A model generated the notes under the pieces. The model searched no databases. It saw nothing but the letters and a program-made list of their open reading frames with translations, and was not told the DNA's origin. This document shows, piece by piece, positions 4,548 to 44,303 of a stretch of 64,000 nucleotides of DNA (positions within the stretch are counted from its first letter, which is position 1; each line of letters starts with the position of its first letter). The stretch is taken from contig NC_090404.1 in the NCBI RefSeq assembly GCF_036365525.1, positions 5,456,001-5,520,000 of the forward strand, read 5' to 3'. Both the position numbers and the translations under genes were made by a program. Origin of the DNA: Heterodontus francisci. Taxonomy: Eukaryota.

Positions 4548-4639
4548 AGTTCTTGCACAGGGATGACTGAGAGCGGTATCACTGTGTTCCAAGATTAAAT
4601 ACGTGGATGGATCCGGGACAGTGGTGACTGTCACAGCGG
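4548..4639 (+). other. NAR-TCR J segment (4587-4639) with 5' 23-RSS
   Basis: AGTTCTTGC-23-CACTGTG, then SKIKYVDGSGTVVTVTA (NAR-type xGxGT motif without W/F) and a phase-1 donor GTAAGT at 4640. Confidence 0.9.
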
Positions 4640-5329
4640 GTAAGTGACTGCAAACCCTGCCGTGCAGCTGACTGTCAGACTGAATGTTCACCCTCAGTTT
4701 ATTATTGCGAACAATATCACCTCAATCTCTTGAAAATAAAACAGAGCAGTTTCCTCATGGACATTTTCCACTGCAGTTTTAGATTCAGGGCAGACTATGA
4801 ACCGTGAGTCGGGTGCAGGTTTGGGTCTGGAGACATGAGGAGAAATTCCCACAGAGAAGGCAGTCTGTGGGGTGCGGACCTCATCTGGACCATCGCAGGT
4901 TTAGCGTGGACTTCGGAGGATCCCCAAAACATCCCAAACTCTTTCTCACTCTGATCCACAGTTGATTTCAATGAGTGCAGATTGTCGAGACTCCGGCCTC
5001 CGCTCACCCTCTTCACTGTGACTGAGTAAACTCTGCCTGTCCCTGTGAGCATGGGAGAGGGTGACAGAATATTCCATTCCGGGATGGGCAGTGTGAATGT
5101 GGTATCGGGAAACTGAGCCCACCACTGCAGCGGCTCCTTTGACACTTGCAGCCACATGTCTGATGCCGTCAGTTAAATAGGGGACATAGTATATTCCCAA
5201 TGCTAATTTAGCAAGTTTGAAAAGCTAAGTCAAGGCTGTAGAGCTGAGTACCGATTTGGGTGAAATCCAGCAGTTTGAGTCAGGAAGTGATGGATGGATT
5301 AATGAGAGTAATAGGCCCTGGACGACTAA

Positions 5330-8300: not shown

Positions 8301-9075
8301 AGATCCCTTTGTTCCTCTACCCCACCGGGACTCGCACCTTCCAAGTGATTAGTGACCTCCTACCAAAAAGTATCATCTCACATTTATCTGTGTTGAATAT
8401 TATTTGCCAATTATTTGCCCATTCTGCAAGGTCATTAATGTCTTCCTGTAATTTGTTGCAGTCCTCCTCAGTATTGACTACCACCCATCCTCCCAGCACA
8501 GCAACAACACCCCCCCCTCCCCCCACCACCGTCAGCCCCACCTCCACCACCCCAGCACCCAAAATTTTCTGTAATCCACACATTTAAAAATTGATGTTTT
8601 GATTCTGAAGTTCAAATCGTTAATATAAATTGTGAACAGCAGTGGTCCCAGCTCTAATCCTTGGAGAAAAACAATTCCCAGCGTCTGACATTCTGATTAA
8701 CTATCCTTTTACTCCTGCTAAAGTTGTTTGCCAGGGTACAGTTGGAGAAAATGTTTTCAGTTATCAGCTGGCCGATAACAAAGAGCCATAAATGTAAGAT
8801 ATTAATTTACTGAACAAATAAAGACATTAGGAAGAATTTATTTACACAAATAGAAGTCAGGACGTGGAACTCGCTGTCACAGTGAGTAGTTGGAGAATAT
8901 GGCCTTGATGTACTTTAGGGGAGGCTTGTAAAATATATCAGGGAGAAAGGAATAAAGGGACAAAGAGGTCAGGATGGGAAAAGGTTATTAAAGTGTGAGG
9001 TGGCTCCTGTGGAGTATAAAATCAGACATAGGCCAGTTGAGCCGAAAGGCCTGTTCCTATTCTGCAGAGTCTGTA
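5330..9075. mobile_element. Cluster of old CR1 ORF2 fragments (+ 5330-7375; - 7630-8700; + 8720-9075) in the J-to-supporting-V intron
   Basis: Degenerate endonuclease and RT motifs (e.g. FQKAFDKVPH, EEDCNKLQEDINDLAEWANNWQ). Confidence 0.8.
7388..7630 (+). mobile_element. HE1-like shark SINE, 5'-truncated
   Basis: Same body and tail (gggcctgtttcagtgctgtatctctaaactaaac) as the full copy at 19472. Confidence 0.8.
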
Positions 9076-10029
9076 CAATATTAAAATGAGAGAAACTCTG
9101 CTTTGTGAACAGGATAACTACTCAGCCAATGGGTGTACGAATTGAAAATATCAGACAGCCGGAAGAGCTAGTTCCCAGTGAGTAACAGTTAAACCACTGC
9201 GGAAACTGCACAGACTGAACCCAACCGACAACTGAGAGAGTTTGGGACAAGTTCTCACGATGACAAAAACCGCAAACAATTGAGTGACCCAGATTTAGAA
9301 GTAAAATGAAAATACCAATATGAACTCGCAAGTAAAGGGAAACGGGACAAAACAGTACCCTTATTGTGAAAAACGCAAACAAATAGAGCTTCAGGGAGAC
9401 AAAAACTCTGTTGAAGAGTGAAACTACAATTAAATTCTGATCTCCTTAAATACAGATGTTAAGCATCACTTGGCTCCACCATGTTCATGAATCTCACTGC
9501 TTTCTGTTGGATCTTGCTGTGCTCAGTTAAACATAACAAAACTGGGCGACGATCGATCAAACATTGTGAATGGTGATTGTCTCCGTGAGGCCGAGAATAT
9601 TCTATTGACTGTTTCGACTGTCTGTCTTTCACAAAGAAATTAGAAACAGAAATGTCATAGAAACTTGAGTCTGATAGAGCACAGAATGAAGTCATTCGGT
9701 CCATCTTTCCCGTGCCGGCTCTGTGAAAGAGATAGTCAAATAGTTCCATTGCCCTGCTCGTTCCCCATAGCCCTGATAATTCTTCCATCTCCATTAACAA
9801 TCCAATTCCCTATTATTGAATCCGCTTCCACTGCCTTTCCAGGCAGCGCATTCCGGGTCATAACAGCACTCTGTGTGAATAATCTTCCCAGTAAAAATTA
9901 AGAAAGTTCGAACGGACTTCAAATGAAGAACAGCATTACCGCGGAAGGCGGTGCCCTGTCTGTGATTGACAAGTGTCTCCGGGTAAACAGCAACTAACAA
10001 CATAATAATATCATCTTTTCATTCTGCAG

Positions 10030-10335
10030 ATTCCAGTTCCCTGGTCTCCCAGAGTCCGCTTCGACAAACCGCTGCTGCCGGGGACACTGCTACTTTCAGC
10101 TGCAAATATTCCGGGATCTGTCAGTACACAGTAAACTGGTACAGTCAGTCCACAGGGCAGACTCCGAAATACCTGCTTCAAGTACTCAACTCAGGAGCGC
10201 AGAATAAAAAGACTGCAGCCGGGGGACGAATTTCTGCTTCTATCGATCCTGCCGAGAAAATCAGCCGGTTAGAAATCTCCAAATTACAACTGAGCGACTC
10301 CGCTGTGTATTACTGTGCACTGAGTCGGCGCATAG
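10030..10335 (+). CDS. Leaderless supporting TCR-delta V exon of NAR-TCR cassette 1
   Basis: Acceptor ttctgcag is in frame with the J donor (G|AT = Asp). V reads DSSSLVSQSP...FSCKYSGICQYTVNWYSQ...LSDSAVYYCALSRRI, with an extra Cys in CDR1. No hydrophobic leader exon was found upstream. Confidence 0.9.
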
Positions 10336-10693
10336 CACAGTGATACAGAGCACGGAGAGAGCTGTACAAAAACCTGAACATGGTGTGGATTACAGTCACA
10401 GTGATACAGAGCACGGAGAGAGCTGTACAAAAACCTGAACATGGTGGGGTTCACGGACATGGCACAGTGATACAGAGCACGGAAAGAGCTGTACAAAAAC
10501 CTGAACATGATGGGAATTACAGACACACAGTGATACAGAGCACGGAAAGAGCTGTACAAAAACCTGAACATGGTGGGGTTCACGGACATGGCACAATGAT
10601 ACAGAGCACGGAAAGAGATGTACAAAAACCTGAACATGTTGGCAATTACAGACAAACAGCGACACCGAGCAGGGAGGGAGCTGTACAAAAACC
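10336..10693 (+). repeat. Tandem array of six 23-RSSs
   Basis: Heptamers at 10336, 10397, 10463 and 10526 (CACAGTG), 10592 (CACAATG) and 10655 (AACAGCG). Each is followed by a 23-bp spacer and ACAAAAACC; periods are 61/66/63/66/63. Confidence 0.95.
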
Positions 10694-10724
10694 TGAACGT
10701 ACCAACAATAAATTCATGGCTGAA

Positions 10725-11500
10725 CTGTTTGCTCCACATTCCCTCCTATCCGCGATAACTTTCCACCCCTTCCTTATCAAGAATCGATCTACCTCTGCCT
10801 TAAAAATATTCAAAGACTCTGTTTCCACCGTCTTTTGAGAAAGAGAATTCCAAAGACTCACACCCTCTGAGAGAGAAAAAATTCCTCATCTCTGTCTGAA
10901 ATGGGTGTTCCTTTATTTTTAAACAGTGAACCCTAGTTCTAGATTCTCTCACAAGAGGACACATCCTTTCCACATCCACCCTGTCAAGACCCTTCAGGAT
11001 CTTATATGTTTCAATCAAGTCGCCTCTTACTCTTCTAAATTCCTGCGGATACAAGCCTAGCCTGTCCAATCTTTCCTTGTAATACACACATTCCAGGTGT
11101 TATTCTCTGTACTGCCTCCAACGCATTTACACCCTTCCTTAAATAAGGAACAATACTCCAGATGTGGTCTCACCAATGCCCTCTATAGATGAAAAATAAC
11201 CTCCCTACTTTATCATTCAATTCTCCTCACAATAAATGATAACATTCCATTCGCTTTCCGAATTACTTGCTGTACCTGCATACTAACCTTTTCTGATTCA
11301 TGCACTAGGACACCCAGATCCCTCTGCATCTCAGAGCTCTGCAATCACTCACCATTTAGATAATATGCTTCTTTTTTAATCTTCCACCCATAGTGGACAA
11401 TTCCACACTTGCCCACTTTATACTCCATTTGCCAGGACTTTGCCCACTCACTTAACCTATCTATATCCCTTTGTAGCCCCCCCTGTGTCCTCTTCACAAG
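10725..11500 (-). mobile_element. CR1 LINE 3' fragment
   Basis: ORF 10800-11087 reads RRVRGDLIETYKILKGLDRV. Confidence 0.85.
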
Positions 11501-11608
11501 ATAATCCAGAGATTATTGCCTTTGAGGTTCTACTTTTTTAATTTAGCCCGAGCTGCTCATGATCCCGAAACAGAAACTCTTTCCTGATCCTACCTATGTT
11601 ATGGGAAC

Positions 11609-13362
11609 TGTCAAGACCGAGGTGGGAGTAATGCACTGTCAATTCAGTGCCACCACTCCACAGGTCGCACCATAGTATTAAAGTTGTCCCACCCACCAGA
11701 AAACAGACACATTAAACATTTTATTAATCCCCAGAATAAAATACACTAAAACCTGGAAACTTTAGACGACAACAAATTAGCTATTTATTAATAAACTAAA
11801 TCTTAAACACTATTGAGATAACTTTATGGCTAAAGACCTTATAACTTCTTTATTGTCATAACCACCCTCCCCCCATGCACACACACATCGGGCTGAATTT
11901 TACCAGCACCTCGATGTCATGGGTCATGGAGCGGGGACCGGTAAAATTCTGCAAAGAGAGGCCCGCCTCGACCCGTGACCCGTGACATCGGTGAGGACCC
12001 GGAGCCTATTACCGGCAGCGTGGGAACCTTAGTTCAACCACTCACGCACGACCACCGCCACCACCACCCCCCCCCATCCCCTCCCACCGCCACCCCCGCC
12101 GCCTGGGTCATCTGCATATGCATATTGTACCAAATGTGATGCAAATAAATTTAACGGCCATCCCACACCGATTTTACGGCCACCGTTCATCTTTCGCGCA
12201 CCTTCGGAACTGCGCACCGAGTTCTGAGTTGAGAACCTGGGTGGATGAATACAATTTTCAGGGCGGGAGGGGTAGAGAAGCGGGGAGATCAATTTTTATT
12301 AGATGTGGGGATGGTTAGAAAGGGTTATAGGCCAAATGTTAGAAGTTGTGGGTAAAGTTCAGGGAGGGGAAAAAAGGCATGTTTTGATTATTCTGTGGAA
12401 TTGAAATGACCATTGATGGGTTGGGGAAGGGCCTCATATCTTTATTACCTGTTTAATAAAAAATGTCGTGTACTTTGCCTTTAAAAAATAAAACTTCATC
12501 TGTGGGCTTAAAGCCCTTTAAAAATGGCGCCGGCGCCTGTGCTGTGGCGCCTGACGCCGTTGCCGCTGGTCCACCCCGCATGTAATATCATGGGAGTTCC
12601 TCCGCGGCACCTCTGTGTCGGCGGCCGCCGAGTTGAAAGCATGTCGCCGCGGAAAACGGGCACGTGATTAAAATTCAGTCCAGATATTCAAAACTCAATG
12701 GTTAACCGGTTTTAAACATAGTATTTCTTGGGAATAAAATAAGTGGCTGCTTTTTAAGTCCTGCTGGGTTACGTTCCCGGTTGATGAGGTGTCCCAGAGT
12801 ACAATAAGCAGATGCCACTCGAAGTCTCCAGGCGACAAAACAGTCTTTAATAGATAGGTATTCAAAACATTTCAACTGCAGCAGGTGTCACACAATTCTG
12901 TCAACGAGGAATATAGCAACAGGTCTATTTGGATTTAGAAATTGGTAGTTTTTTAGTAGAAACTTTACTGAGAATTCCAGCACACACAAACAGACGAAAG
13001 AGAGTCACTCTTGAAGCAAATAATTCCGAAGTGAAAAGGAATTTCTAGCATCAACAATGCAAATGCTTTTTCCAGGGTTTCTTTCTCCTTCGACAATACA
13101 CAACCTAAACATAAATGTAGATTTTCCTGCTAAGTGTGCATTCTGCACACTTCGCTGATCTCAAGGTTAGTCTGGTTTTTGCTGGTTTTTACACACAGTC
13201 AAACGTTGCAGTACAACATGTGACCTCCCACTCCTGCTGTTGCCTAGGAAACATGTACAGCTGCTGGCACACTGTGCCCCTTCGTTTTTAAAAGAACACT
13301 GTTTTTAAACAGAGTGTTCAAGGCAGACTGTTTTAAATAGAAGGGGGGAAAGTTCCATGACA
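11609..13362 (-). mobile_element. Probable solo LTR inserted in a CR1 ORF1 relic
   Basis: TGTCA...TGACA termini with a near 4-bp TSD (gaac/gcac). One end resembles the sequence at 28855-28922. Confidence 0.55.
11890..12681. mobile_element. Non-autonomous DNA transposon (MITE-like) nested in the LTR
   Basis: Terminal inverted repeats gggctgaatttta / taaaattcagtcc. Confidence 0.55.
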
Positions 13363-13948
13363 GCACCCACATGGACCAGGACAACTGGATCCCCTCCCCC
13401 TCCCACTACAAGTTCCTCTCTGGCCACGAGTCGATGTCCTGAACCCTGGCACTAGGCAGGCAGCAGAGCCATGTGGACTGGCACACTCAGCTGCAGGGGT
13501 ATCTATCTATCCCCTTGACTGTACTGTCCCATACAGACATGCCATTTCTATGTACACCACTCACCACCCACACCCCCCCCCCCCCCCGCCCGCCCCACCA
13601 CCACCACCACAACTTGAATGGCTCCCTGCACCATGGTGCGATGGTCAGTTAACTCATACAGCTTGCAACCCCTACTCTCGTCCATACAAGCTGCAAAAGC
13701 CTCGAACTTGTTGGACCTTCTGAATCCCCATGCCTGCCTTAGTCACAGTTACAATCTCCTATTCCTGGTCACCAACAAAATCAGAGGACCCTAGCCTCCA
13801 GGGTGTGACTGCCTTCTGGAACAAAGTGCCCAGGCAACTTTCCCCTTCCCTGATGAATCTCTGTGTCCGAAGTCTAATGGTGACCATGAAACCATTGTTG
13901 ATTGTTGTATAAACAAACATCTGGTTCACTAATGTTTTTTAGGGAAGG

Positions 13949-16900
13949 CCTAGTCACTGGGGAGCAGAGGGAGAACGGACCCGGAGGGGCGGAGCATCGA
14001 AGCTATGATTATAAATAACGTACCTCGAGGATTTCACGGCCTAGTCACAGGGGACCAGAGGTAGAGCAGACCCGAAGGGGCGGAGCATCAGAGCTGTGAG
14101 TATAAATAACTTACCTCGGGAATTTCGCGGCCTAGTCACCGGGGAGTGGATATAGAGCAGACCCGCAGGGGCGGAGCTGCTTTCGCTGCTTCAGTGCTCC
14201 AACAGAAACTGAGAAAAATCTGAAATAAGTGACGTCACAGGAAAACTGGTCGGGAATCTGCACTAAATTTGACAAACTATTTGAAAATTTTGAAAGCCTA
14301 ATTAACTAAAATAAAGAAGAGATGGCAGGGTGGGCGACGTGCCACAGCTGCATGATGTTGGAGCTGGTAGATCCCATTGCGAGCCACAGTGACGACATCT
14401 GCAGCAAGTGCTTGCAGCTCAAAGAACTTCAGCTCAGAGTTGATGGGCTAAAGTCCGAGCTTCAGACACCGCGGCACATCAGGGAGGGTGAGAGGTTCCT
14501 GGACACTGTGCTTACAGCAGTCTCACCGTGTAGATTAAGCATCTCAAATTCGGCCAGTGGTCAGGGACAGGAGGATGTGACTGCAAGTGAGGCAGGTAGA
14601 GGGATCCTGAATTCAGCAATGGAGGTGCCTCAGCTCTTGACCTTGCCTAACAGGTATGAGGTACTTGCTCCCTGTGTGGATGAGGAAAAGGACTGTAGGG
14701 ATGATGAACAAACTGACCACTGCACCGTGGTACAAGAGGCCATTCATGCGGGGGGAGCAAAAAGAAAAGTGGTAGTGGTAGGGATTCCATAATTAAGAGT
14801 ACTGATAGCATCCTTTGTAAGCAGGACCGAGAGTCCCGCATGGTATGTTGCCTACCTGGTGCTAGGTGAGGGACAATTCTAACTCGTTTGAAAGGATATT
14901 GGAGAGAGAGGGAAAGGATCGAGTTGTTGTGGTCCACGTTGAGACAACCAACATAGGCAAGACTAGGCAAGAGGGCTTGTTTGGGGATTATCAGGAACTA
15001 GGAACACAATTAAAAAACAGGTCCTCAAGGGTTATAATCGCTAGATTATTACCCGAACCACGTGCACATTGGCATAGAGATAAGCAAATTAGGGAAGTAA
15101 CATGTGGCTAAAGGAGTGGTGTGGGAAAGACGGGTTCAATTTCATGGGGCACTGGCATCAGTATTGGGACATGAGGGAACTGTACCGTTGGGACGGGCTC
15201 CACCTGACCCGATCTGGGGACAGTGTCCTGGCGGAAAGGATAAATAGGGTGGTCACAAGGACATTAACCTAGTAAATGGGAAGGGGAGGGGGAGGCCTCA
15301 GGGGAAGTCAATACACTTTCAAAAGCAAGTAATAAGTCAGAGAGTAAAAAAACAGTCAGGAACCCTACTTCAAGAATTGCAGGTAATGACAAAACTGCAA
15401 GAAGTATACTGGATAAATCAGAAGAGAGAAATAATAATAACAGGTGAATAAAGCATCAGTGCTGAGGGACAGTTTAGGGGGTATAGCCCAAATAAGAGTT
15501 CTATATACAAATGCAGGAATAAACTAGATGAGCTGCAGGCGCAAATTCAAATGGAAGATTATGATGTGGTGGCCATTGCAGAGATGTGGCTGCAGGATGG
15601 TCGGGACTGAGAACTAAATGTACCTGGTTATAAAGTTTACAGGAGGGACGGGGAAAACGGCAGAGGGGGTGGAGTAGCCTTACTGATTAGAAATAATATC
15701 ACCTCATTGGTGAGGGAGGATATAAAGAGGGGAAAGCATCCAGTGGAGACCTAATGGGTGGAATTGAGGAACAGAAAAGGATCTAAAACTGTAATGGGTG
15801 TTGTGTAGCAGTTCTGAGGTGTTAGATTGTATCAATCCAAAAATTAGGCAAGTGTGAAACATAGGAAGAGTAGTATTAATGGTGGATTTTAACTTGCACA
15901 TAGATTGGGAGAGGCAGACTAACACCTGTCAGAAAGATTGTGAATTTCTGGAATGTGTCCGGGATAGTTTCCGACAGCAATATGTCCCAGATGTAACAAG
16001 GGGACAGGCAATATTAGATTTAGTTATGTGTAATTAGCCAAATTTATTTAGTAGCCTAATTGTGCGTGAACATTTATCAAATAGTGATCACAACATGATC
16101 GAATTCAAGGTAACGTTTGAAAGTGAAAAGCACAAATCAGCTATTAGAATTTTAGACTTGGGTAAAGCTGACTTTACCGGGAGACAGAGACTGTCCACGG
16201 TAAACTGGGTAGATCTGGTAATGGGTCAAACGACTGAAGAACAGTGGAGAATATTTAAAGAAACATTTAATGAAATACAGAGCGAGTATATACCCCTGAG
16301 AGGAAAAAGCTCCACTTCACAGAAAAAACAGCCATGGACAACTAAAGAGATTAGGGATAGCATAAAACAAAAAGAAATGGCTTACAAAAATGCAAAACGC
16401 AGCACAGATGCGGCCGAATGGGATCGATACAAAGACCAGCAAAGGGTCACAAAGCAGCTTATAAGAGCTGCTAAAAGAGATTATGAAAGGAAACTTGCAA
16501 GGGACATCAAAATCAATAAGAAGAAATTTTATAGTTACATAAAGGGAAAACGGGTGGTCAAGAACAATAACAAGAAATGCTGGATTCACTCAGCAGGTCT
16601 GGCAGCATCTGTGGAAAGAGAAGCAGAGTTAACGTTTCGGGTCAGTGACCCTTCTTCGGAACTGACAAATATTAGAAAAGTCACAGATTATAAACAAGTG
16701 AGGTGGGGGTTGGGCAAGAGATAACAAAGGAGAAGGTGCAGATTGGACCAGGCCACATAGCTGACCAAAAGGTCACGGAGCAAAGGCAAACAATATGTTA
16801 ATGGTGTGTTGAAAGACAAAGCATTAGTACAGATTAGGTGTGAATATACTGAATATTGAACATCAGCAAGTGCAAACCTGAAGAAAAACAACCTGAAAAA

Positions 16901-28949: not shown

Positions 28950-31900
28950 AATACTTGACGTGTAAAACTTATGTATCAAACAGACAGGTTGCGTGTGCTC
29001 TTTAAAGTTGCTCCCATCAAGCAGATGAGAGTTGGTGTCTGCATGGACATTAGGACCCTGCGGCAGTCCATCCGGCGGTAACGTGAGGTCGATTCAACCG
29101 TCCGCCATGTTTGTGTGCTGAGCTGTGCTCCAGAGGTGCCCTCTTGCCCTGACTATCGTTTCCCCATCTCCCCTGTCAGATTACTGGAGCTTTTGACCGC
29201 GGCTTGTTCACAGGGTTTATTTGATCAGTGTTGCTGGCTCAGAGGCAGTTTATATGCAATGAACTGATTTCAGAAGATAGTGACTGTGACCTTTAAAACA
29301 AGCCCCAAGAACAGAGTTCCCCCAATGTACATTATCCTTCCAAGTGTCTCTTCATTCTCTGTAAATGCAACTGGAAACTCTGAATATTACAGACCAGGAA
29401 ATTAATCATTACTGAATTGAAACATCATTTCAAATACAAACCACAGAAGGGCGGGGTGGGGAGGTGGGGAGGTGGGGTGGGGGTGGGGAGGTGGGGTGGG
29501 GAGGTGGGGAGGTGGGGTGGGGGGTGGGGAGGTGGGGTGGGGCTGGTGGTGGGTGCTGAAGCATTTGTTTAAATGACAGGGGGAGTTTATTCCTTGTGTA
29601 CATTGTGTATATCAACCTGGATATTGACAATGTCACTGGACTGTCTCATTTTGTAACCTAACCCTCAGTTGCTGGACTGAGAGAAGCTGCCGGGTCTGAG
29701 GCGCCGTCCTTCAGATCAGACATTTAACCTAGGCCCCGCCAGCCCGTTCAGGGAGATGTTAAAGAAACCCCCGGCACTATTGGAATAAGAGCGGGGAGGC
29801 AGGATTCCCCCGGTGTCCTGGGCCCACATTCCACCCTCAACAAACACCACCCAATAAAAACACAGGGAGCGACCTCCCAGATCATTACTGTGGGGGAAAG
29901 GAGGGCGGCCGCCTCTACTGACAGAACAACTCCCCCAGCCCCACCCCCTGTACATCAGACTAATGTGGGAGGGGATTTCACATCGGACTCACAGACCTAA
30001 TGAAGCGACAAAAAACTGCAGGTTCCCTCTTTAAACCTGTCACTTATTCACATAACACACAGTCAGAGACCCGGGAACCGTGCGGCCCATCAATGATCTC
30101 TGGGACACTGTCCTCTGCAAATCCGCTAAAGTATTTCAGTCCATCTCTGAGGTCCAGTCTCCGGTAATAGCGTCTGAGCCGACGAAGGCCACAGCAGGGA
30201 AAAATAGGAAAAAATAAAATGAAAGGCTCTATATCTGAATTTACGCAGCATTTGTAAGAAGACAGATGAACTAACGACACAATTGGGGATTAATATATTT
30301 GATCTTGACGCCATTGCTATGACATGCTTACAGGGTGACTAAAGTTAGGAACTAAATATACTTGACTTGACTTTTGGAAAAACTAGACAAAATGAAAAAG
30401 GAAACGGGATAGGCCAGATAATAAATGATGAGATAAAGGCAGTCGTGAGAAAGGATCTTAGACCAAATGTTAGGATCAAAAATTAGTACGGAGCTACGAA
30501 ATAAGAAAGCGCAGAAAGCACGAGTGGATTTAAAGCAATCATGTTAGATGGAGTATAAATCAGCAAGTTAGAGGAGCATGTAATATGGCGAATGCAATAA
30601 TCCTGGGGGAACTGTAATCTCTATATAGGGTAAGCAAACCAAATTGACAAAAGTCGATTGGAGGACGAGATTCTGGAATGCATTCGAGACACATATCTCG
30701 AACAATATGTCGAGGAAACTAACTACGGAATTGACTATCTAATGTTTTGTAACGAGACTGTATTAATTCATAATCTTAAAGTAACGGATCCTCTGGGAAA
30801 GAGTGATCATAACATGATAGATGTCATACTTAATTTGAGAGTAACGTGGTTAAGCCCGAAACTAGGGTGTTAAAATTAAAAAAGGCCAATTACAGAGGGA
30901 TGAGGGGTACACAAGCTGAGCTAGATTGGGAGTTTAGATTAAAATATATAATGTTCAACAAGCAATGGCAAACATTTAAATAAATAATTCCCAATTCTCA
31001 ACGAACATACATTCCCTTGAGGAATAGAAAACTCCACTGGCAAACTGGTGTGGCGATGGATAGCCCGGGAAGTTAAGGACAATATACAATTGGAATAAGA
31101 AGAATACAATGTTGTCAGAATAGTAAGACTGCAAAGGATGATCACAAAATGATAAAGAGGGGACAAATAGAATATGACAGCAAATTAGCAAGAAGTTTGA
31201 AAACAGATTGTAAGAAATTCTACATGTATGTTCAAACGAAGGGAGTAGTGAAAGTAAACGTGGCCTCTTAGAAGCAGAGACAAGAGAATTTATAATTGGG
31301 AAGAAGGAAATGGCCGACACCTTAAACAGATATTTATGTGTCTGCGTTTGTAGTAGAGGAGGCAAATAACATAATGGAAACTGTGGAGAATCAAGTGTCT
31401 AATTAGAGAGAAGGAGTTAAAATAATTAATATCAATAAAGAAAAGATACAGGAAAAAATAATGATATTAAAATCTCACAAATCCCCTAGAAGCGATTTCC
31501 AAAGCCTAGGGTTTTTAAAGAGGTATCTACAGAGATAGTGGAATTATTGCTTTGATCTCAGAATTCTCTAGATTCTGGAACAATACCCGTGGATTAGAAG
31601 GTAGAAAATGCAACCTGTTGTTCCAGAAAAGAGATACAGAGAAAACATGGAACTATAGGCCAGCTAGCATCATTACGATATACAAAATACTAGAATCTAT
31701 TATTGGGAACATAGTGATAGGGAAATCGGAAATTCATAATACAATTAGGCAGAATCAAAATGGCTTTATGAACGAGAAATCCTACTTGACAAATCTATTT
31801 GCGTTTTTGAGATTTCACTAAAAGGTAGTTAATAAAGAAACCACATTCTCCAGCCTTATTCATTATCTGTTATGGGATACCTCTTGCAAGGCGTTTTGCA

Positions 31901-34100
31901 AAAAAAAAAACCCAGATACAGTGCATTCAGTGCGTTACCATCGCCTACTCTCTCTGTTACCTCCAAAAAATCAATAATACTATCCGTTTTGACAGGAATC
32001 ACAATCACAGAGCGTTAACGTGCCGGTACAGAAAGCAATTGGGAAGGGAATTGATATGTTCGCCTTTATTGCAAGGGCGTTGGAGTGCAAGAGTAAGGAC
32101 GTCTTGCTACAATTATCTAGCGCTTTGCTGAGACTAAATCTGTTGTTGTCATTGACTGAATATTCGCAGCACTTCAGTTGACAGGAGTCCAAATATTTAC
32201 AGTTCGCTGAATGAAGGAATTACTTTTGATCACAGCCCTTGGCTGCTTCAGAGAACCAACACGGACACGACGGGCCGAATGAGCTCCTTCTGACCTGTAA
32301 CCACATATTGAATCTATATCATTCATTGACCTTGGCCTTTGATCCCTAGTTCCAGGTTCTCCACATTGGCCATATGGTCTACTGTTTCTCATCGCTCTTA
32401 TATTGTTACCTTGTGTTCTTAATAATACCACAGGACAATTCAGGAGGAACGTCTTCACTCAGGGAGTGGTTGGAATGTGCAACTCGCTATCACGTCGAGT
32501 AGTTGATAGGAACAAAATCAATGCATTCAAGGGGAAACTACCATAACACATGAGAGAGAAAGAATGGAGTGATACCTTCATAATGTGAGGTAATATAGAG
32601 TTGTAAGTTGGCTCGTGTGGAGCATAAGCACCGCATGGACAGGTTAGGCCGAATGGCCTGGTTATGCTGTGCATCTGGGTTGGTCTATGTAATACATGTT
32701 TCTCGTGTATGAGAGATAGGTTTGCAGGAATCCATCTGTATCCTTGGTTGCTGTTAATGAAAATAACAATTGGCAGTGAGCGAGTCAGGTCGAGCTACTA
32801 ATGTTGTGACAAAAGGAGCACAGGAACAGCCGAGAGAACGAGTGCAGATTGGAAGAAAGTAAATTTAGAACCAGCAAGAAATAATTCACCGAAAGGGAGA
32901 AGAATACCGGACTTCGCCGGCCAGACGGGAGTCTGGAGATACCGATCTCAGGGCTGTTCAAATACAATACAAAGCCGGGAAGTGAGCTTTGCTGGAGGGA
33001 CGGACTGCGACTGGACTCTGGACTTTTCCTCAATTTTGGATTTCTAATACTCCTGAGAAAATACATCAACAGCAATCCACACCTATCTGGAAAGATTCAA
33101 TAGCCTGAGGTTTTTTTTTATCTCTGGTAAAGAGAAGACCTCGAGGAGACCTGGTGGACATAATTAAAATGCTAAAGTTGTTCGCTCGGGTGCAGGTGGA
33201 GAAAATGTTTTCACTTGTCGGCGAATCCAGAACAAAGAGCCATAAATATAAGAAATTCACCGACAGAATAAATAAAAACATTAGGAAGAATTTATTGACA
33301 CAGAGTGGAACTGTCTGCCACAAGGAGTAGTTGCAGAATATAGGATTGATGCACTTCAGGGGAGGCTTGAAAAATACAATAGAGAGAAAAGAATAAAGGG
33401 ACAAAGAGGTCAGGATGGGAAGAGGTAATGAAAGTGGGAGGAGCCTCCTGTGGAATATAAAATCAGGCACAGACCAAGTGGGCCAAATGTCTCTTTCCTG
33501 CTCTGCAGATTCTGTACAATATTAACGCACAGGGTAGATGTCAGCCAATGGGCTGTAGGAATTGAATTTGTCAGAGAGATGAAAGAGCAGGTTCCCAGTG
33601 AGTAACAGTAAAAACAACCGCGGAAACTGCACAGACTGAAACCAACCGACAACTGAGAGACTTTGGGACAAGTTCCCAGGATGGCAAAATCCCAAAATAG
33701 TCACAAAATGAACGACCCAGACGCAGAAATAAAATGAAGTACCCATATAAATCTGAGATTAAAGTGAAATGGGGCAAAACAGGCCCCTTCTTGGGAAAAA
33801 ATTAAACACATCGAGCTTGAGGCAGGCAGGAGTTCCCTTGAAGCGTGTAACTGCAGTTAAGCTCTGATCTTCAACACACAGATGTTAAGCGTCACTTGGC
33901 TCAGTCGTGCTCATGAATCTCACTGCTTCCTGTTGGAACTTTCCGTGCTCAGTTAAACATATCACAGTGAGACAGAGCACGACGAGAGCTGGACAAAAAC
34001 CTCAACATGGTGGGGATTACAGACACACAGTGATAGAGAGCACGGAGAGAGTTGTACAAAAACCTGAACAAGGTGGGAATTACAGACACACAGTGATCAC
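28950..34100 (+). pseudogene. Third, diverged NAR-TCR cassette lacking both coding modules
   Basis: Colinear with 330-747, 2572-3259, 5308-6940 and 8750-9535. It jumps over leader-V-D-J at ~30162 and over the supporting V at ~33962. Confidence 0.8.
33963..34095 (+). repeat. Orphan tandem 23-RSS array (two full RSSs plus a third heptamer)
   Basis: CACAGTG at 33963, 34026 and 34089; ACAAAAACC at 33993 and 34056; 63-bp period; truncated by a CR1 3' end. Confidence 0.9.
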
Positions 34101-36518
34101 AGAATTATAGAATTGTTACAGCGCAGAAGGAGGCCATTCGGCCCATCCTGTTCGCACCGGCTCTCTGAAACAGCAATTCCCTCAGTCCCACTCTCTTTCG
34201 TCTGTTTGTGTGTGCTGGAATTCTCCGTAAAGTTTCTACTAAAAGACTACCAATTTCAAAATCCAAATAGACCTGTTGCTATATTCCTCGTTGACAGAAT
34301 TGTGTGACACCTGCTGCAGTTGAAATGTTTTGAATACCTATCTATTAAAGACTGTTTTGTCGCCTGGAGACTTCGAGTGGCATCTGCTTATTGTACTCTG
34401 GGACACCTCATCAACCGGGAACGTAACCCAGCAGGACTTAAAAAGCAGCCACTTATTTTATTCCCAAGAAATACTATGTTTAAAACTGGTTAAACATTGA
34501 TTTTTGAATATCTGGACTGAATGTTAATCACGTGCCCGTGTTCCGCGGCGACGCGCTTTCAACTCGGCGGCCGCCGACACAGAGGTGCCGCGGAGGAACT
34601 CCCATGATATTACATGCGGGGTGGACCACCGGCAACGGCGTCAGGCGCCACAGCGCAGGCGCCGGCGCCATTTTTAAAGGGCTTTAAGCCCACAGATGAA
34701 GTTTTATTTTTTAAAGGCAAAGTATACGACATTTTTTATTAAACAGGTAATAAAGATATGAGGCCCTTCCCCAACCCATCAATGGTCATTTCAATTCCCC
34801 AGAATAATCAAAACATGCCTTTTTTTCCCTACCTGAACTTTACCCACAACTTCTAACATTTGGCCTATAACCCTTTCTAACCATCCCCACATCTAATAAA
34901 AATTGTTCCCCCCGCTTCTCTACCCCTCCCGCCCTGAAAATTGTATTCATCCACCCTCCCCACCAGGTTCTCAACTCAGAACTCGGTGCGCAGTTCCGAA
35001 GGTGCGCGAAAGATGAACGGTGGCCGTAAAATCGGTGTGGGATGGCCGTTTCCTGCAGTTAAATTTATTTGCATCACATTTGGTACAATATGCATATGTA
35101 GATGACCCAGGCGGCGGGGGTGGCGGTGGGAGGGGATGGGGGGGTGGTGGTGGCGGTGGTCGTGCGTGAGTGGTTGAACTAAGGTTCCCACGCTGCCGGT
35201 AATAGGCTCCGGGTCCTCACCGATGTCACGGGTCACGGGTCGAGGCGGGCCTCTCTTTGCAGAATTTTACCGGTCCCCGCTCCATGACCCATGACATCGA
35301 GGTGCTGGTAAAATTCAGCCCGATGTGTGTGTGCATGGGGGGAGGGTGGTTATGACAATAAAGAAGTTATAAGGTCTTTAGCCATAAAGTTATCTCAATA
35401 GTGTTTAAGATTTAGTTTATTAATAAATAGCTAATTTGTTGTCGTCTAAGGTTTCCAGGTTTTAGTGTATTTTACTCTGGAGATTAATAAAATGTTTAAT
35501 GTGTCTGTTTTCTGGTGGGTGGGACAACTTTAATACTATGGTGCGACCTGTGGAGTGGTGGCACTGAATTGACAGTGCATTACTCCCACCTCGGTCTTGA
35601 CAGTTCCCATAACATAGGTCGGATCAGGAAAGAGTTTCTGTTTAGGGATCATGAGCAGCTCGGGCTAAATTAAAAAAATAGAACCTCAAAGGCAATAATC
35701 TCTGGATTATCTTGTGAAGAGGACACGGGGGGGGCTACAAAGGGATATAGATAGGTTAAGTGAGTGGGCAAAGTCCTGGCAAATGGAGTATAAAGTGAGC
35801 AAGTGTGGAAATGTCCACTTTGGCTGGAAGAATAAAAAAGAAGCGTATTATCTAAATGGTGAGTGATTGCAGAGCTCTGAGATGCAGAGGGATGTGGGTG
35901 TCCTAGTGCATGAATCAGAAAAGGTTAGTATGCAGGTACAGCAAGTAATTCGGAAAGCTAATAGATTGTTGTTGTTTATTGCGAGGAGAATTGAATACAA
36001 AAGTAGTGAGGTTATTTTTCATCTATAGAGGGCATTGGTGAGACCACATCTGGAGTATTGTTCCTTATTTAAGGAAGGGTGTAAATGCGTTGGAGGCAGT
36101 ACAGAGAATAACACCTGGAATGTGTGTATTACAAGGAAAGATTGGACAGGCTAGGTTTGTATCCGCAGGAATTTAGAAGAGTAAGAGGCGACTTGATTGA
36201 AACATATAAGATCCTGAAGGGTCTTGACAGGGTGGATGTGGAAAGGATGTGTCCTCTTGTGAGAGAATCTGGAACTAGGGTTCACTGTTTAAAAATAAAG
36301 GAACACCCATTTCAGACAGAGATGAGGAATTTTTTCTCTCTCAGAGGGTGTGAGTCTTTGGAATTCTCTTTCTCAAAAGGCGGTGGAAACAGAGTCTTTG
36401 AATATTTTTAAGGCAGAGGTAGATCGATTCTTGATAAGGAAGGGGGTGGAAAGTTATCGCGGGTAGGAGGGAATGTGGAGCAAACAGTTCAGCCATGAAT
36501 TTATTGTTGGTACGTTCA

Positions 36519-36747
36519 GGTTTTTGTACAGCTCCCTCCCTGCTCGGTGTCGCTGTTTGTCTGTAATTGCCAACATGTTCAGGTTTTTGTACATCTCTTT
36601 CCGTGCTCTGTATCATTGTGCCATGTCCGTGAACCCCACCATGTTCAGGTTTTTGTACAGCTCTCTCCGTGCTCTGTATCACTGTGACTGTAATCCACAC
36701 CATGTTCAGGTTTTTGTACAGCTCTCTCCGTGCTCTGTATCACTGTG
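36519..36747 (-). repeat. Tandem array of four 23-RSSs
   Basis: Heptamers at 36741-47, 36680-86, 36614-20 (CACAATG) and 36551-57 (degenerate); nonamers GGTTTTTGT at 36709, 36648, 36582 and 36519. Confidence 0.95.
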
Positions 36748-37053
36748 CTATGCGCCGACTCAGTGCACAGTAATACACAGCGGAGTCGCTCAGTTGTAAT
36801 TTGGAGATTTCTAACCGGCTGATTTTCTCGGCAGGATCGATAGAAGCAGAAATTCGTCCCCCGGCTGCAGTCTTTTTATTCTGCGCTCCTGAGTTGAGTA
36901 CTTGAAGCAGGTATTTCGGAGTCTGCCCTGTGGACTGACTGTACCAGTTTACTGTGTACTGACAGATCCCGGAATATTTGCAGCTGAAAGTAGCAGTGTC
37001 CCCGGCAGCAGCGGTTTGTCGAAGCGGACTCTGGGAGACCAGGGAACTGGAAT
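36748..37053 (-). CDS. Leaderless supporting TCR-delta V exon, cassette 2
   Basis: ORF 36740-37078; the protein is identical to that of 10030-10335. Confidence 0.9.
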
Positions 37054-40000
37054 CTGCAGAATGAAAATATGATATCATTATGTCGTTAGTTGCTGTTTAC
37101 CCGGAGACACTTGTCAATCACAGACAGAGCTCTGCCTTCCGCGGTAATGCTGTTCTTCATTTGAAGTCCGTTCGAACTTTCTTAATTTTTACTGGGAAGA
37201 TTATTCATACAGAGTGCTGTTATGACCCGCAATGCGCTGCCTGGAAAGGCAGTGGAAGCGGATTCAATAATAGGGAATTGGATTGTTAATGGAGATGGAA
37301 GAATTATCAGGGCTATGGGGAACGAGCAGGGCAATGGAACTATTTGACTATCTCTTTCACAGAGCCGGCACGGGAAAGATGGACCGAATGACTTCATTCT
37401 GTGCTCTATCAGACTCAAGTTTCTATGACATTTCTGTTTCTAATTTCTTTGTGAAAGACAGACAGTCGAAACATTCAATAGAATATTCTCGGCCTCACGG
37501 AGACAATCACCAGAAAGCAGTGAGATTCATGAACATGGTGGAGCCAAGTGATGCTTAACATCTGTATTTAAGGAGATCAGAATTTAATTGTAGTTTCACT
37601 CTTCAACAGAGTTTTTGTCTCCCTGAAGCTCTATTTGTTTGCGTTTTTCACAATAAGGGTACTGTTTTGTCCCGTTTCCCTTTACTTGCTAGTTTATACT
37701 GGTATTTTCATTTTACTTCTAAATCTGGGTCACTCAATTGTTTGCGGTTTTTGTCATCGTGAGAACTTGTCCCAAAGTCTCTCAGTTGTCGGTTGGGTTC
37801 AGTTTGTGCAGTTTCCGCAGTGGTTTAACTGTTACTCACTGGGAACTGGCTCTTCCGGCTCTCTGATATTTTCAATTCGTACAACCCATTGGCTGAGTAG
37901 CTATCCTGTTCACAAAGCAGAGTTTCTCTCATTTTAATATTGTACAGACTCTGCAGAATAGGAACAGGCCATTCGGCTCAACTGGCCTATGTCTGATTTT
38001 ATACTCCACAGGAGCCACCTCCCACTTTAATAACCTTTTCCCATCCTGACCTCTTTGTCCCTTTATTCCTTTCTCCCTGATATATTTTTCAAGCCTCCCC
38101 TAAAGTACACCAATGCCATATTCTCCAACCACTCACTGTGACAGCGAGTTCCACGTTCTGTCTTCTATTTGTGTAAATAAATTCTCCCTAATGTCTTTAT
38201 TTGTTCAGTAAATTAATATCTTACATTTATGGCTCTTTGTTATCGGCCAGCTGATAACTGAAAACATTTTCTCCACCTGTACCCTGGCAAACAACTTTAG
38301 CAGGAGTAAAAGGATAGTTAATCAGAATGTCAGACACTGGGAATTGTTTTTCTCCAAGGATTAGAGCTGGGACCACTGCTGTTCACAATTTATATTAACG
38401 ATTTGAACTTCGGAATCAAAACATCAATTTTTAAATGTGTGGATCACAGAAAATTTTGGGTGCTGGGGTGGTGGAGGTGGGGCTGACGGTGGTGGGGGGA
38501 GGGGGGGGGTGTTGTTGCTGTGCTGGGAGGATGGGTGGTAGTCAATACTGAGGAGGACTGCAACAAATTACAGGAAGACATTAATGACCTTGCAGAATGG
38601 GCAAATAATTGGCAAATAATATTCAACACAGATAAATGTGAGATGATACTTTTTGGTAGGAGGTCACTAATCACTTGGAAGGTGCGAGTCCCGGTGGGGC
38701 AGAGGAACAAAGGGATCTCGGAGTACAGATGCACCAATTGCTAAAAGTTAAGCGATAGTTTAGCAAGGCCGTAAAAAAGCAAACAAGGCAATAGGCTTTA
38801 TTTTTAGAGAAATATAATTGAAAAGTAGGGAAGCTTTGATGAACTTGTATCGAACCTTGGTTAGACCACACTTAAGAGTATTGTGTGCAGTTCAGGTCGT
38901 CTTATTATAAAAAGGATTCGGAGGAACTTGGAAAGGGTGCGGAGAAGATTTACAAGATGATAACAGAAATGCGTGGGTCTACATATCAGAAAAGGATGAA
39001 GAGGCTGTGTCTTATTGCTCTTCAATAAAGAAGGTTGTGGGATAAACTAATGGAGATCTTCAAAATTATGGAAGTTTTGATAAAGTAGAGAATGTTTCCA
39101 CTTGTGGGCAGAAGTACAACTCGAGGCCATCGGTAAAAGATAGTCACCAATAAATCCAATAGGCAATTCAGAAGATGCTTCTTTACTCAGATAATGGGGA
39201 GAATGTGGAAATTGCTACCATGGGGCGTGGTTGAAGTGAATAGTATAGATGCATTTACAGGAAGCTAGATAAGCATATGGGGAAGACGGGATTTGCCAGT
39301 TACGATGATAGATTAGATGGTGAAAGATGGGAGGAGGCTTGAGTGAAGCATGAACACCAACATGAACTATTTGGGCCGAAAGGCCTGCTTCTTGTTTAGT
39401 TTAGAGATACAGCACTGAAACAGGCCCTTCGGCCCACCGAGTCTGTGCCGACCATCAACCACCCATTTATACTAATCCTACACTAATCCCATATTCCTAC
39501 CACATCCCCACCTGTCCCTATATTCCCCTACCACCTACCTATACTAGGGACAATTTATAATGGCCAATTTACCTACCAACCTGCAAGTCTTTTGGCGTGT
39601 GGGAGGAAACCGGAGCACCAGGAGGAAACCCACGCATAAACTATGTAAGCCTATGTATGTAATAATGTCACACTTTCCCGCAATATCCTCCTTCTGCCAC
39701 TTTCTTTCCCAGTCACTTAACCTATCTTTGTCTCTTTGCAGCGCGCTTGCACCCTCCTCACAACTTATTTTCCCACCTAGCTTTATATGATCAGCAAACT
39801 TGGATATACTATATTGGGTCCCTCATCGAAGTCATTGGTATAGATTGGAAATGACTAAGGCTCAAACTCCGATCGTACATAACGTTACTAGTTACACCCT
39901 GTTATCCCCAAAATGGTCTATTTATTCCTACTCTCTGTTTCCTGTCACTGAACAAATCCTAAATCTATGCTATTATAATACTCCTAATCCCATGAGCTCT

Positions 40001-42388
40001 ACTCCTGTGTAACAACCTGCTGTGTGGCACCTTATCGAATGCCTTCTGAAAATCCAAATATACTTCATCCACTGGTTCGTTTTTAACTACCCTTCTAGTG
40101 AAACCTCAAAAAAGACGAATAGATTTCTCAAGTATCATTTCTTGTTCATAAAGCCATGTTGATTCTGCATAATTTTATTATGATTTTCCGGTTGTCCTAT
40201 TACCATCTCCCATTTTTGTTATTATTTGGGATATTACTGATGGTAGCTGGCCTATATTTCTCTGTTGTCTCTGTCTCTCTTTTCTGGAGCAACGGGATAA
40301 CATTTTCTAAGTTCCGATCCACCGTTCCAGAATCTAGAGAATTCTGAGATCAAACCAATAATTTCATTCGCCCTTTTGAGACCCTAGGACCAGGCAATCA
40401 GTTCTAGGAGATGTGTAGCTTCTAGCCCCATTAATTTATTCAGCGTCTTTGTTATTAATATTAAATGCTTTAACTTCTTCACTTGGTTCTCCACAATTTC
40501 CATTATGTTCGTTGTGTCCTCGACTGGAAATGCAGACACAAAATATCGGAAGAGATTTTTTCTGTCTCTGCTTCTAAGAGGCCACGTTTACTTTCACTAC
40601 TCTCTTCCTTTTAACAAAATTGCAAAGGTTCTTACAATCTGTTTTCATTTTTCATGCTAGTTTACTGTCATATTTCATTTACTCCCTCTTCATCATTTTG
40701 TGGTCATTTTTTGCTGATTTTTAAAAGCCTCCTAATTTTCAGGTTTGCTACTCTGACAACATTGTAAGGTTCTCATTTGAATGTTACACGATCTTTAACT
40801 TCTCTAACTATACATGGCTATACCATTTTTCCAATGGAGTTGTCTATTCCGTAATGGAATGTATGTTCGTTGAGAATTGTAAATTATTTATTTAATTGTT
40901 TACAATTGTTCATTGAACATTATAGATTTTAATCTGGACTTCCAATCTAGCTCACCCTGCACTCCCTTCATAACTCCGTAATTGGCCTTTAAAAAAAAGA
41001 CCCCAGTGTCGGTGTTGACCACATTACGCTCAAATTGAAGATGACAGCTATCATCTTATGATCACTCTTCCCCAGAATATCCTTTACTTTCAGATAATGA
41101 ATTAATACAGTCTCGTGTCAAAGTACTAGATCTAAGATATTCAATTTCAAAATTACTTTCCGCAACATATTGTTCGAGAAAGGTGTCTCGAATGCAGTCT
41201 TGAAACTTATTCTCCCATCTACTTTTGTCAGTTTACTTTGCTCATTCTACATAGAGATTACAGGCCCCCATGATTATTGTATTCATCATGGTACATGCTC
41301 TTCTAACTTCCTGATTTATACTCTCTCTAACAACATGATTACTTTAAATGTGCTGATATTTTCTGCGCTTTGTTATTTCCTAGCTGCACCATACAGATTT
41401 TAGATCCTGACCTTTTGGTGTTAGATCCTTTCTCAATACTGCCTTTATCTCATCCTTTATTATCCGGCCTACCCGCTGTCTTTTTCATTTTGCCTAGTTT
41501 TTTCCCAAAAGTCAAGTACTCTTGTATATTTAGTTCCGAACTTTTGTCATTCTGTATCCATGTCTTAGTAATCCTACTAGATCAATTACATTGATCTGTA
41601 TTTGTGACATTAATCCATCTGTCGTCTTACAAATGCTTCGTGCATTCAGATGTAACGTCTTTCATTTTAGTGTTTTCCTATTTTTCCCTGATCTGGCCTT
41701 AGTCGTCCAGGGCCTATTACTCTCATAAATCCATCCATCACTTCCTGACTCAAACTGCTGGATTTCACCCAAATCGGTACTCAGCTCTACAGCCTTGACT
41801 TAGCTTTTCAAACTTGCTAAATTAGCATTGGGAATATACTATGTCCCCTATTTAACTGTCGGTATCAGACATGTGGCTGCAAGTGTCAAAGGAGCCGCTG
41901 CAGTGGTGGGCTCAGTTTCCCGATACCACATTCACACTGCCCATCCCGGAATGGAATATTCTGTCACCCTCTCCCATGCTCACAGGGACAGGCAGAGTTT
42001 ACTCAGTCACAGTGAAGAGGGTGAGCGGAGGCCGGAGTCTCGACAATCTGCACTCATTGAAATCAACTGTGGATCAGAGTGAGAAAGAGTTTGGGATGTT
42101 TTGGGGATCCTCCGAAGTCCACGCTAAACCAGCGATGGTCCAGATGAGGTCCGCACCCCACAGACTGCCTTCTCTGTGGGAATTTCTCCTCATGTCTCCA
42201 GACCCAAACCTGCACCCGACTCACGGTTCATAGTCTGCCCTGAATCTAAAACTGCAGTGGAAAATGTCCATTAGGAAACTGCTCTGTTTTATTTTCAAGA
42301 GATTGAGGTGATATTGTTCGCAATAATAAACTGAGGGTGAACATTCAGTCTGACAGTTAGCAGCATGGCAGGGTTTGCAGTCACTTAC

Positions 42389-42480
42389 CCGCTGTGACAG
42401 TCACCACTGTCCCGGATCCATCCACGTATTTAATCTTGAAACACAGTGATACCGCTCTCAGTCATCCTAGTGCAAGAACC
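42389..42480 (-). other. NAR-TCR J (42389-42441) with 23-RSS, cassette 2
   Basis: GGTTCTTGC-23-CACTGTG; FKIKYVDGSGTVVTVTA; GTAAGT donor. Confidence 0.9.
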
Positions 42481-42804
42481 ATCGACACCTCAATCTGCTG
42501 GTTACACATCACCAGACAGTCGGTGCTGCCCAATTATTCGAGGGATTTGAGACTAATAAACAATATTCCATGTTTCATATTCCCTGTCGATACCAACTGT
42601 TCTTTGTGAGACTCTGAGCTCTTGGTAAAATGGCGCAGGAACACGGGCCAGAGATGGACGCTTCATAGAAATGGAGAAAAATGTCAGAGAAAGATAATAG
42701 AAAGGAGAAAATTACAATAAAATGAAACCATATTACAGCGATAATAACATCAAACCTACAATTTAGCATCCGAGCCCTGGGAATTTCTATTTCAATTGTA
42801 TAGA

Positions 42805-42874
42805 GGTATTTGCTCAGGTCTCTCCCACTGTGGCCAGCCCAATAAACACTGTGCTTCAAGTCAGCATCAAATCC
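42805..42874 (-). other. NAR-TCR D (42833-42846) with 12/12 RSSs, cassette 2
   Basis: Identical to 4154-4223 in reverse complement. Confidence 0.88.
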
Positions 42875-43227
42875 CCCTGTACTTGGCGAGATGTGGGGAC
42901 AATTGTTAAAGGGTTCCCGGTTCCAGCTGTTAGAACAGGATCCCATCTGGTGTTAGGGATTTGTAACTGTGATCAGTCATTCCCAATTACCATTCACTGA
43001 CACCAATCCCGGCAATGGCGGCATCATCTGCACACATTCTGCATTAATATAACTCCAGATGTTACCTGGAAAATGCCAATCTCATTATAAACTAGATTGT
43101 GGTCTGACGGTGCGACACGGAACTGTGGGGCTTGACGGCAGATTCAATCCGCTTTTTAATAATTTGTTTCTGTGATAATCTGCAGTGAGAGATTTTGTAC
43201 CGCGGGAAGCCAAGGCCCATCACTGTG

Positions 43228-43702
43228 TGTCTTTGTACTCAGCTTTACAGTAATAGGTGGCGGTGTCTTCAACTCTCATATCCAGAATTTCTAGCGAAAA
43301 TGTCTTTTTTGCCTTATTCACAGACACATCAAATCGTCCTCCGTCCGAGATCGGTTCCTGCTCTGTCCTGGTCTGGGTTTGTCTGAAGAAATGTCCATTT
43401 TGGAAATAATGCCGTGAAATAGCAGAGGAAAACACACAGGTGATGGTGAGAGACTGACACTCCTTCCTGGTCACCGCTGCCGGGGTCTGTGTCACTGACT
43501 GACTGAAAGAGCCTGGAAATTAAACAGAGAGAGTTTAATGGGCCATCAGAGCCGAACCACACAACGGGTTAAAACCCGAGACAGTGTCTGTAATTCGGAT
43601 GGACTCGGGCAGCTTCATATTAAATCCACACAATGTCGGTTTGTTTGATCGGTACTCACGGGGTAAACAGACACACAGGGTGAAAACAAGGAGGATTCCC
43701 AT
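43228..43702 (-). CDS. NAR-TCR V segment, cassette 2; leader 43660-43702, V exon 43228-43512; RSS 43190-43227 (22-bp spacer)
   Basis: VTQTPAAVTRKECQSLTITCVFSSAISRHYFQNGHFFRQ...DTATYYCKA. Confidence 0.92.
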
Positions 43703-44303
43703 CGTTCTGCTGCCTGGAGCTGATGGTTGCTATGACGGGGAGCTGGAGACTGCAGCCCTGGACTGCTCTGGGAGACTGGACCTCAGAGCTGGACTGAAAT
43801 ACTTCAGGGGGATCGAGTTGCAGAGGGCAGTGTTCCGGAGATCTTTGATGGGCCGCACGGTTCCCGGGTGGCTGGCTGTGTGCTGTGTGAATGAGAGACA
43901 GGTTTAAAAAGGTTACTTGCAGTTTTCTCTCGCTTCATTGGGTCTATGAACTCGATGTGAAATTCCCTCCCACATTAGTCTGATGTACAGGGGGTGGGGC
44001 TGGGGGAGTTGTTCTGTCAGCAGAGGCTGCCGTCCTCCTTTCACCCACAGTAATGAGCTGGGAGGTCGGTGCATGTGTTTCTGTTGGGTGGTGTTTGTTG
44101 AGGGTGGAATGTGGGCCCAGGACACCGGGAGAATCCTCCCTTCCCGCTCTTATTCCAATAGTGCTGGGGATTCTTTAATATCTACAAATGGTCTCCAGGA
44201 ACCTTGGCTCAGCAGTTAATGGGCGACTCTGTGTGCGACCAGTATAATACTGGCAGAGATCAGCTTTTCCAAACAGATGCTGCAGGATGATTTCTGTGTG
44301 TTT

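Follow-up and report, generated by a model that had tools for sequence, protein, structure and literature searches.

As a rule, each V segment carries one recombination signal sequence (RSS). Minisatellites, or variable number tandem repeats (VNTRs), gain and lose whole units, have degenerate ends and form higher-order repeats. The shark RSS array described here shares with them a 60-66-bp unit, whole-unit changes, degenerate ends and a two-unit higher-order repeat, but differs in that its unit is a recombinase target. Its setting is that of the NAR-TCR of cartilaginous fish, in which a NAR V-D-J cassette is followed by a supporting TCR-delta V; according to a published description, the supporting V has an extra cysteine in CDR1, and the NAR V has a cysteine in the a-b loop and no W of WYRK (PMC1845163). 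The consulted portions of the published accounts of this supporting V do not mention a repeated RSS (PMC1845163; PMC12227049), whereas 2-14 units were found here in 24 of 26 loci. The alternative RSSs of mouse TRBJ1-2 and TRBJ1-7 are similar in that a second usable RSS lies tens of bases from the gene border and germline DNA is left in the coding joint; as far as the excerpts of that study go, however, these are single, dissimilar and cryptic signals, while the shark units are near-perfect tandem copies in variable number (PMC6857471). Germline-joined shark immunoglobulin genes carry RAG-like coding joints fixed in the germline (PMC2193156, in part), which is paralleled here by VD, DJ and VDJ joints in NAR-TCR cassettes; that study is concerned with coding joints, whereas the V-less arrays reported below resemble retained signal ends and our main feature is the repeat. 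A repeated-RSS stack was without description in the titles and abstract openings searched, the term 'RSS' is absent from the main text of PMC5931798, and the supplement of PMC3964593 gave 0 matches; Criscitiello 2006, Ott 2021, Deiss 2019 or their supplements may already describe it.

The window analyzed is a stretch of 64,000 nucleotides of Heterodontus francisci (NC_090404.1, hereafter C34, positions 5,456,001 to 5,520,000). It contains two 10-kb NAR-TCR cassette copies in inverted orientation, at 2847-13005 (plus strand) and 34190-44183 (minus strand), with 98.1% identity. Each comprises, in this order, a leader, NAR V, D and J, an intron, a second V with a splice acceptor, and a tandem array. 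In cassette 1 (plus strand), the leader exon was located at 3328-3370, the NAR V exon at 3519-3800 with a single RSS at 3801, the D at 4182-4195, the J at 4587-4639 and the supporting TCR-delta V exon at 10030-10335. In cassette 2 (minus strand), the leader exon lies at 43660-43702, the NAR V exon at 43228-43512 (single RSS with a 22-nt spacer), the D at 42833-42846 (12-RSS on both sides), the J at 42389-42441 (23-RSS on its 5' side) and the supporting V exon, with its splice acceptor and extra CDR1 cysteine, at 36748-37053. The NAR V CDR1 sequences read GASWDY and SAISRHY, respectively, as given in the preliminary description. The window NAR V has the a-b loop cysteine (KECQS) and lacks the W of WYRK (HFFRQ), and the supporting V has the extra cysteine in CDR1 (SGICQY), in agreement with the published NAR-TCR features. 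The supporting V is 74% identical to Carcharodon LOC121270138, which is labelled NARTCRdV in table S1 of PMC12227049 (seen in part). A public contig (run X5, whose RNA status is a guess) matched 10029-10244 without difference, and its 88 upstream letters map elsewhere, as a spliced J would. Comparison of the two NAR V copies (3591-3724 versus 43440-43304; 285 columns) gives 14 substitutions and one 3-bp insertion, concentrated in CDR1 and the loop after it; the supporting V shows no difference. The window also holds conventional V segments with one RSS each at 24979, 46190, 47992, 54241 and 62995, those near 46190 and 54241 having weak signals that the RSS scan missed, and a 91-bp tandem repeat of 2.5 copies at 13947-14177, at the start of a LINE-like element.

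The supporting V of cassette 1 is followed by an array of six 23-RSS units (61, 66, 63, 66, 63 and 44 bp; 10336-10698, plus strand) and that of cassette 2 by an array of four (61, 66, 63 and 44 bp; 36514-36747, minus strand), which bears out the unit numbers first reported. Each unit in the window arrays consists of a 23-RSS and a linker of 22-27 bp. Both arrays end in a degenerate partial unit of 44 bp with the heptamer AACAGCG, so that the usable RSSs number five in array 1 and three in array 2, the perfect ones four and two. It had also been noted that the inverted copy has an identical V protein and lacks exactly one 129-bp block (66 + 63 bp). Both observations hold at the DNA level: the supporting V exons differ at 0 of 305 aligned columns, and array 1 becomes array 2 letter for letter when 129 bp are excised, for which 49 placements are equivalent (start 10419-10467; possible span 10419-10595, plus strand). 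Within array 1, unit 2 differs from unit 4 at one site and unit 3 from unit 5 at four. Since four differences do not fit a fresh duplicate, the 129-bp change is read as a loss from copy 2, and the two-unit repeat most likely predates the state common to both copies. The loss may have occurred when unit 2 mispaired with unit 4 over a stretch of 48 identical bases.

Alternatively, array 2 could have collapsed during assembly, or the two copies could be haplotypes placed side by side. We consider such an artefact most improbable. Public DNA contigs from one sample, possibly the source of the assembly, contain both cassette alleles of a 66-bp intron site (9505-9570, plus strand, present in copy 1 and missing from copy 2) together with the copy-2 substitutions, and therefore two cassette versions exist. 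In addition, the two copies are flanked by different sequence on either side, the sequence of unit 3 is unique, an array of 14 units is present in this assembly too, and other pairs likewise differ by whole units. What speaks for an artefact is that the 129-bp joint was unseen in the public contigs, which are built from 31-mers and cannot phase across the shared 48-bp stretch, and that the depth of copy-1-specific contigs is about half to two-thirds of that at the copy-2 joint (5.2 versus 11.5 and 3.6 versus 5.7), contig depth being no copy number. A hole in the public contigs at 10580-10643 proves nothing. The copy-1-specific contigs at 9525-9600 have less depth than the copy-2 joint; this might mean that only one haplotype carries copy 1, which contig depth cannot show.

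The array had been proposed to expand or contract faster than point mutations accumulate. The cassettes are 1.9% divergent: over 9960 aligned columns, 187 substitutions were counted, and the 66-bp intron deletion is one of 15 indel events. A tract of 604 aligned columns over the supporting V and the array (10016-10748, plus strand) is free of substitutions, with p = 0.001 under uniform scatter and p = 0.07 when clustered substitutions are merged. The second-longest identical run measures 545 columns and extends over the signals of NAR V and D. The simplest reading is that the V-plus-array tract was homogenised by recent gene conversion; selection is possibly a partial alternative. In six close paralog comparisons from five clades (flank divergence 1.2-4.4%), unit number differed in four (6/4, 7/8, 4/3 and 3/2) and was the same in two (8/8, and 4/4 with one broken unit). 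The whole-unit changes measured 63 bp in L004/L005, 63 bp in L010/L015 and 64 bp in L011/L016. The break in L010/L015 falls at unit offset 15-21, in the middle of the spacer and away from the heptamer edge, so that homology alone suffices to explain it. By our own arithmetic, unit number changes about once per few per cent of divergence, well above the per-site rate. Accordingly, the proposal stands when counted per site and within the identical tract, but fails as a general statement. Beside the 187 substitutions there is a single array event, and the five other close pairs carry 3-25 mismatches inside the array, some of which are register effects, so that point mutation is not generally overtaken by length change. 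The array is nevertheless length-labile, with 1-14 units over the 26 loci, and the head-to-tail arrangement, with copies that differ by whole units, supports VNTR-like lability among paralogs.

To place the window arrays in their family, the 6.0-Gb genome was searched at the DNA level. Twenty-six V-bearing loci were found between 3.65 and 13.66 Mb of C34, together with three V-less arrays. The number of units per supporting-V locus ranges from 1 to 14 (median 3), at least two being present in 24/26, and a NAR leader-V-(D)-J lies within 20 kb upstream of 25 of the 26 supporting Vs. The exact pattern heptamer-23-nonamer-(20-28)-heptamer gave 31 matches in the 6.0 Gb, all on C34 and in the arrays of this family, and 0 in the reversed control; no perfect tandem 23-RSS was thus present in the genome outside the supporting-V family. 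Likewise, all 79 unit matches genome-wide fell inside the 29 known arrays, compared to 0 in the control. The tandem-RSS array is not a product of chance. For other sharks, read-through peptides were used, which come from gene models and not from DNA: among 50 homologous proteins, the 16 with read-through tails were tested, and eight tails span at least two units, in Pristiophorus, Hemiscyllium, Stegostoma, Rhincodon and one further record with five units. Two tails end at the start of the second unit, three reach one unit at most and three gave no match. By these gene models, the stack predates the divergence of sawsharks from horn and carpet sharks, more than 200 My ago. A metagenome pattern scan for the array returned 0 stretches, and when proteins were searched with the array portion of P0049, only the query itself matched, 1 among 7 candidates.

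Constraint on the signals was assessed from mutation events counted once per clade, with 25% expected in heptamer or nonamer. In first units, only 7 of 66 events hit these motifs (p = 0.002), compared to 27 of 122 in middle units (p = 0.24); for the heptamer alone, the counts were 1/66 and 14/122 (Fisher p = 0.02). Purifying selection on the heptamer and nonamer of the extra units was therefore not detected in this test, which has limited power for middle units, may be blurred by homogenisation and is blind to selection on the number of intact signals; of L013, which has four units, one broken, it took in only the first two. Middle units are RSS-competent in most cases (CAC, 23-nt spacer and nonamer), 41/51 being intact by a lenient rule and 24/51 perfect, while last units are mostly degenerate (9/24 intact, with L013 taken as two units). 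Units diverge by 0.086 within an array and by 0.113 between clades. The spacer and linker of unit 1 diverge by 0.11-0.14, somewhat less than fourfold sites (0.153) or the intron (0.198), the V distances being taken from 15 same-length representatives of the 26 loci. In L013, a short (CTAAA)n insertion interrupts unit 3 (C34 ~8399050).

Our results give slightly better than even support to the reading that the array is an RSS minisatellite, likely ancient, in which whole units are gained and lost, the extra units are near-neutral passengers and only the first signal is conserved. Its unit would be the supporting V's own recombination signal plus ~24 bp, and units would likely be gained and lost by unequal exchange or slippage, with recent gene conversion having homogenised the V-plus-array tract in the window. 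In T cells, RAG could cut intact distal units, but the product would be non-productive: the V frame stops inside unit 1 in 25/26 loci, mostly at a TGA that ends the first heptamer, and because this stop would be retained, a cut at a later unit should give a dead chain. The cost of such cuts would have to be small enough to be tolerated. Two sets of observations do not sit easily with the passenger reading. At least two units are kept in 24/26 loci and in 8/16 protein tails, which implies long persistence, and against pure neutrality, 41/51 middle units are RSS-like and the spacer and linker are slightly more conserved than fourfold sites and intron. Continual renewal from the constrained first unit could account for the RSS-like middle units, the conserved spacer and linker and the old, family-specific stack. 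If the units are passengers, the difference between six and four is ordinary minisatellite turnover. The stack itself remains an interesting object, as its 1-14 units across shark orders form a natural dose series for studying how RAG chooses among neighboring signals and how two joins are ordered in a doubly rearranging receptor.

The same counts bear on the suggestion that unit number tunes how often each cassette is used. Extra signals could load RAG near the supporting V and raise productive use, or act as decoys and lower it, with unit number setting NAR-TCR frequency. The stack is confined to the V class that needs a second rearrangement in the same chain (31/31 perfect tandem and 79/79 unit matches), it is kept in 24/26 loci and in other shark orders, and middle units are mostly still RSS-like, all of which would fit such a role. 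However, the middle-unit motifs are without constraint (27/122, p = 0.24), distal cuts would retain the in-frame stop in 25/26 loci, and unit number varies from 1 to 14 with no sign of an optimum. Tuning is thus not supported, the selection signal leans against it, and we regard it as rather improbable. In carpet sharks, the read-through peptides show QSAT or QNDT in the second unit where an intact heptamer gives HSDT, implying, as judged from protein, a broken CAC in that unit, which fits the passenger reading.

The turnover of the array may be linked to RAG in germ cells, where nicks or cuts at the stacked signals would trigger conversion, unequal exchange and V-deleting joins, so that the array feeds its own turnover. 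This is compatible with the minisatellite reading, but we judge it unlikely. Three different germline coding joints were found in NAR cassettes. A joined NAR V-D-J exon is present at L045 in two tandem copies, 6325-5964 and 7450-7089 (C34:7874064-7875550, minus strand), one with an open frame and the second with a stop; the tandem duplicate has the same junction, and the duplication points to a germline origin of this join. A joined D-J occurs at L044 3870-3741 (C34 ~7806600) and a joined V-D at L102 (C34 ~11269690); for these single joins a somatic origin could in principle be conceived. At L045, the V-D-J copies have an unjoined cassette on one side and the supporting V of that cassette on the other, and they could add or replace a fixed NAR domain.

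The three V-less arrays also point toward RAG. The one in the window (33963-34095, plus strand; two full RSSs and a lone heptamer) forms the end of a dead cassette remnant at 29558-34095 that is without leader-V-D-J and supporting V. All three arrays start 0-1 nt from a heptamer edge although their flanks are unrelated (window 33963; L030 1501; L029, C34 ~10428920, minus strand), which by our own arithmetic has a probability of ~1 in 10,000 under uniform breaks. In addition, the two longest identical tracts between the cassette copies (604 and 545 columns) both cover RSSs. The consulted part of PMC2193156 reports germ-cell RAG-like joining of shark Ig genes, RAG nicks can start homologous recombination (PMC6101574), and in the section of table S1 of PMC12227049 available to us a great-white row is labelled 'NARTCR V(gj)', where we take gj as germline-joined. 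The joined segments and V-less arrays suggest that RAG cuts in germ cells at NAR-TCR segments. For array turnover, a part of RAG is suggestive only: the break of the window V-less array has a 5-nt CACAG microhomology, as judged from its nearest intron relatives, the L010/L015 change lies off the heptamer edge, the 129-bp placements include a heptamer edge only as expected by chance, and the identical tract reaches only p = 0.07 once clustered substitutions are merged. The accessible part of PMC2193156 raises the open question of the fate of signal ends under RAG action in shark germ cells, to which both the germline joins and the heptamer-edged relics are relevant.

The preliminary description had further proposed to compare the usage of cassettes 1 and 2. 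Two inverted delta-type C clusters were identified on C34 (3.30-3.46 Mb, L051-L070), the first at 3.30 Mb (minus strand) and the second at 3.46 Mb (plus strand). One D was found in each, and the J motifs number at least 19 in the first and at least 11 in the second; the delta assignment follows from D presence and position, with no named match, and the Ds were found by local scan, the strict D-segment pattern giving 0 matches. IgH-like V segments lie between the clusters, and further J segments are present at 3.27 Mb. Judging from signal orientation, cassette 2 should be joinable on the chromosome to both clusters and cassette 1 only to that at 3.30 Mb, because its join to the 3.46-Mb cluster would end on an excised circle. 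Since the two cassettes face the inverted D-J-C clusters in opposite orientation, a comparison of their usage would be confounded.

The same geometry would permit a different use of the stack, in which RAG cuts a distal unit first, the dead join keeps the proximal signals, and these are recut to a further J, allowing several attempts and delaying the productive join. Each cluster has many J motifs downstream (at least 19 and at least 11, with one D found each), so that a proximal unit kept in the first join could be cut again and joined to another J; distal joins would contain the stop; and in mouse, joining also proceeds from an alternative RSS situated 31-39 bases from a TRBJ, with germline DNA retained in the joint, as described in the part of PMC6857471 consulted. 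Such serial recutting is nevertheless very doubtful, since middle-unit heptamers mutate freely and a second cut would skip D. Combining the above possibilities, the array could be a self-renewing stack of RAG targets, in which germ-cell RAG drives gains, losses and V-less relics, and which acts in T cells as a reloadable magazine or rheostat, with stack length deciding when and how often the second rearrangement takes place. This would amount to heritable VNTR control of a receptor repertoire, and we hold it to be improbable; the passenger minisatellite remains our preferred reading.

Other roles of the units were considered and rejected. The RSS scan gave no reverse-strand signal inside the arrays, arguing against units as D segments, and of 19 window matches to the CTCF core consensus (at most two mismatches), 0 fell in the three arrays, arguing against an RSS-associated CTCF element. 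At L005 (C34 ~8579600-8580000), two contigs (run X5, RNA status a guess, depth ~21) extend from the end of the V into units 1-2, with the allele combination of L005; the L005 V is frameshifted, and sterile read-through and a distal join are indistinguishable in them. In-frame extension of CDR3 by the array is ruled out by the V-frame stop for 25/26 loci. The exception is L019 (C34:13659147-13659611), the sole supporting V that is open through its array, where every unit left in place by a distal cut would contribute 21 in-frame residues.
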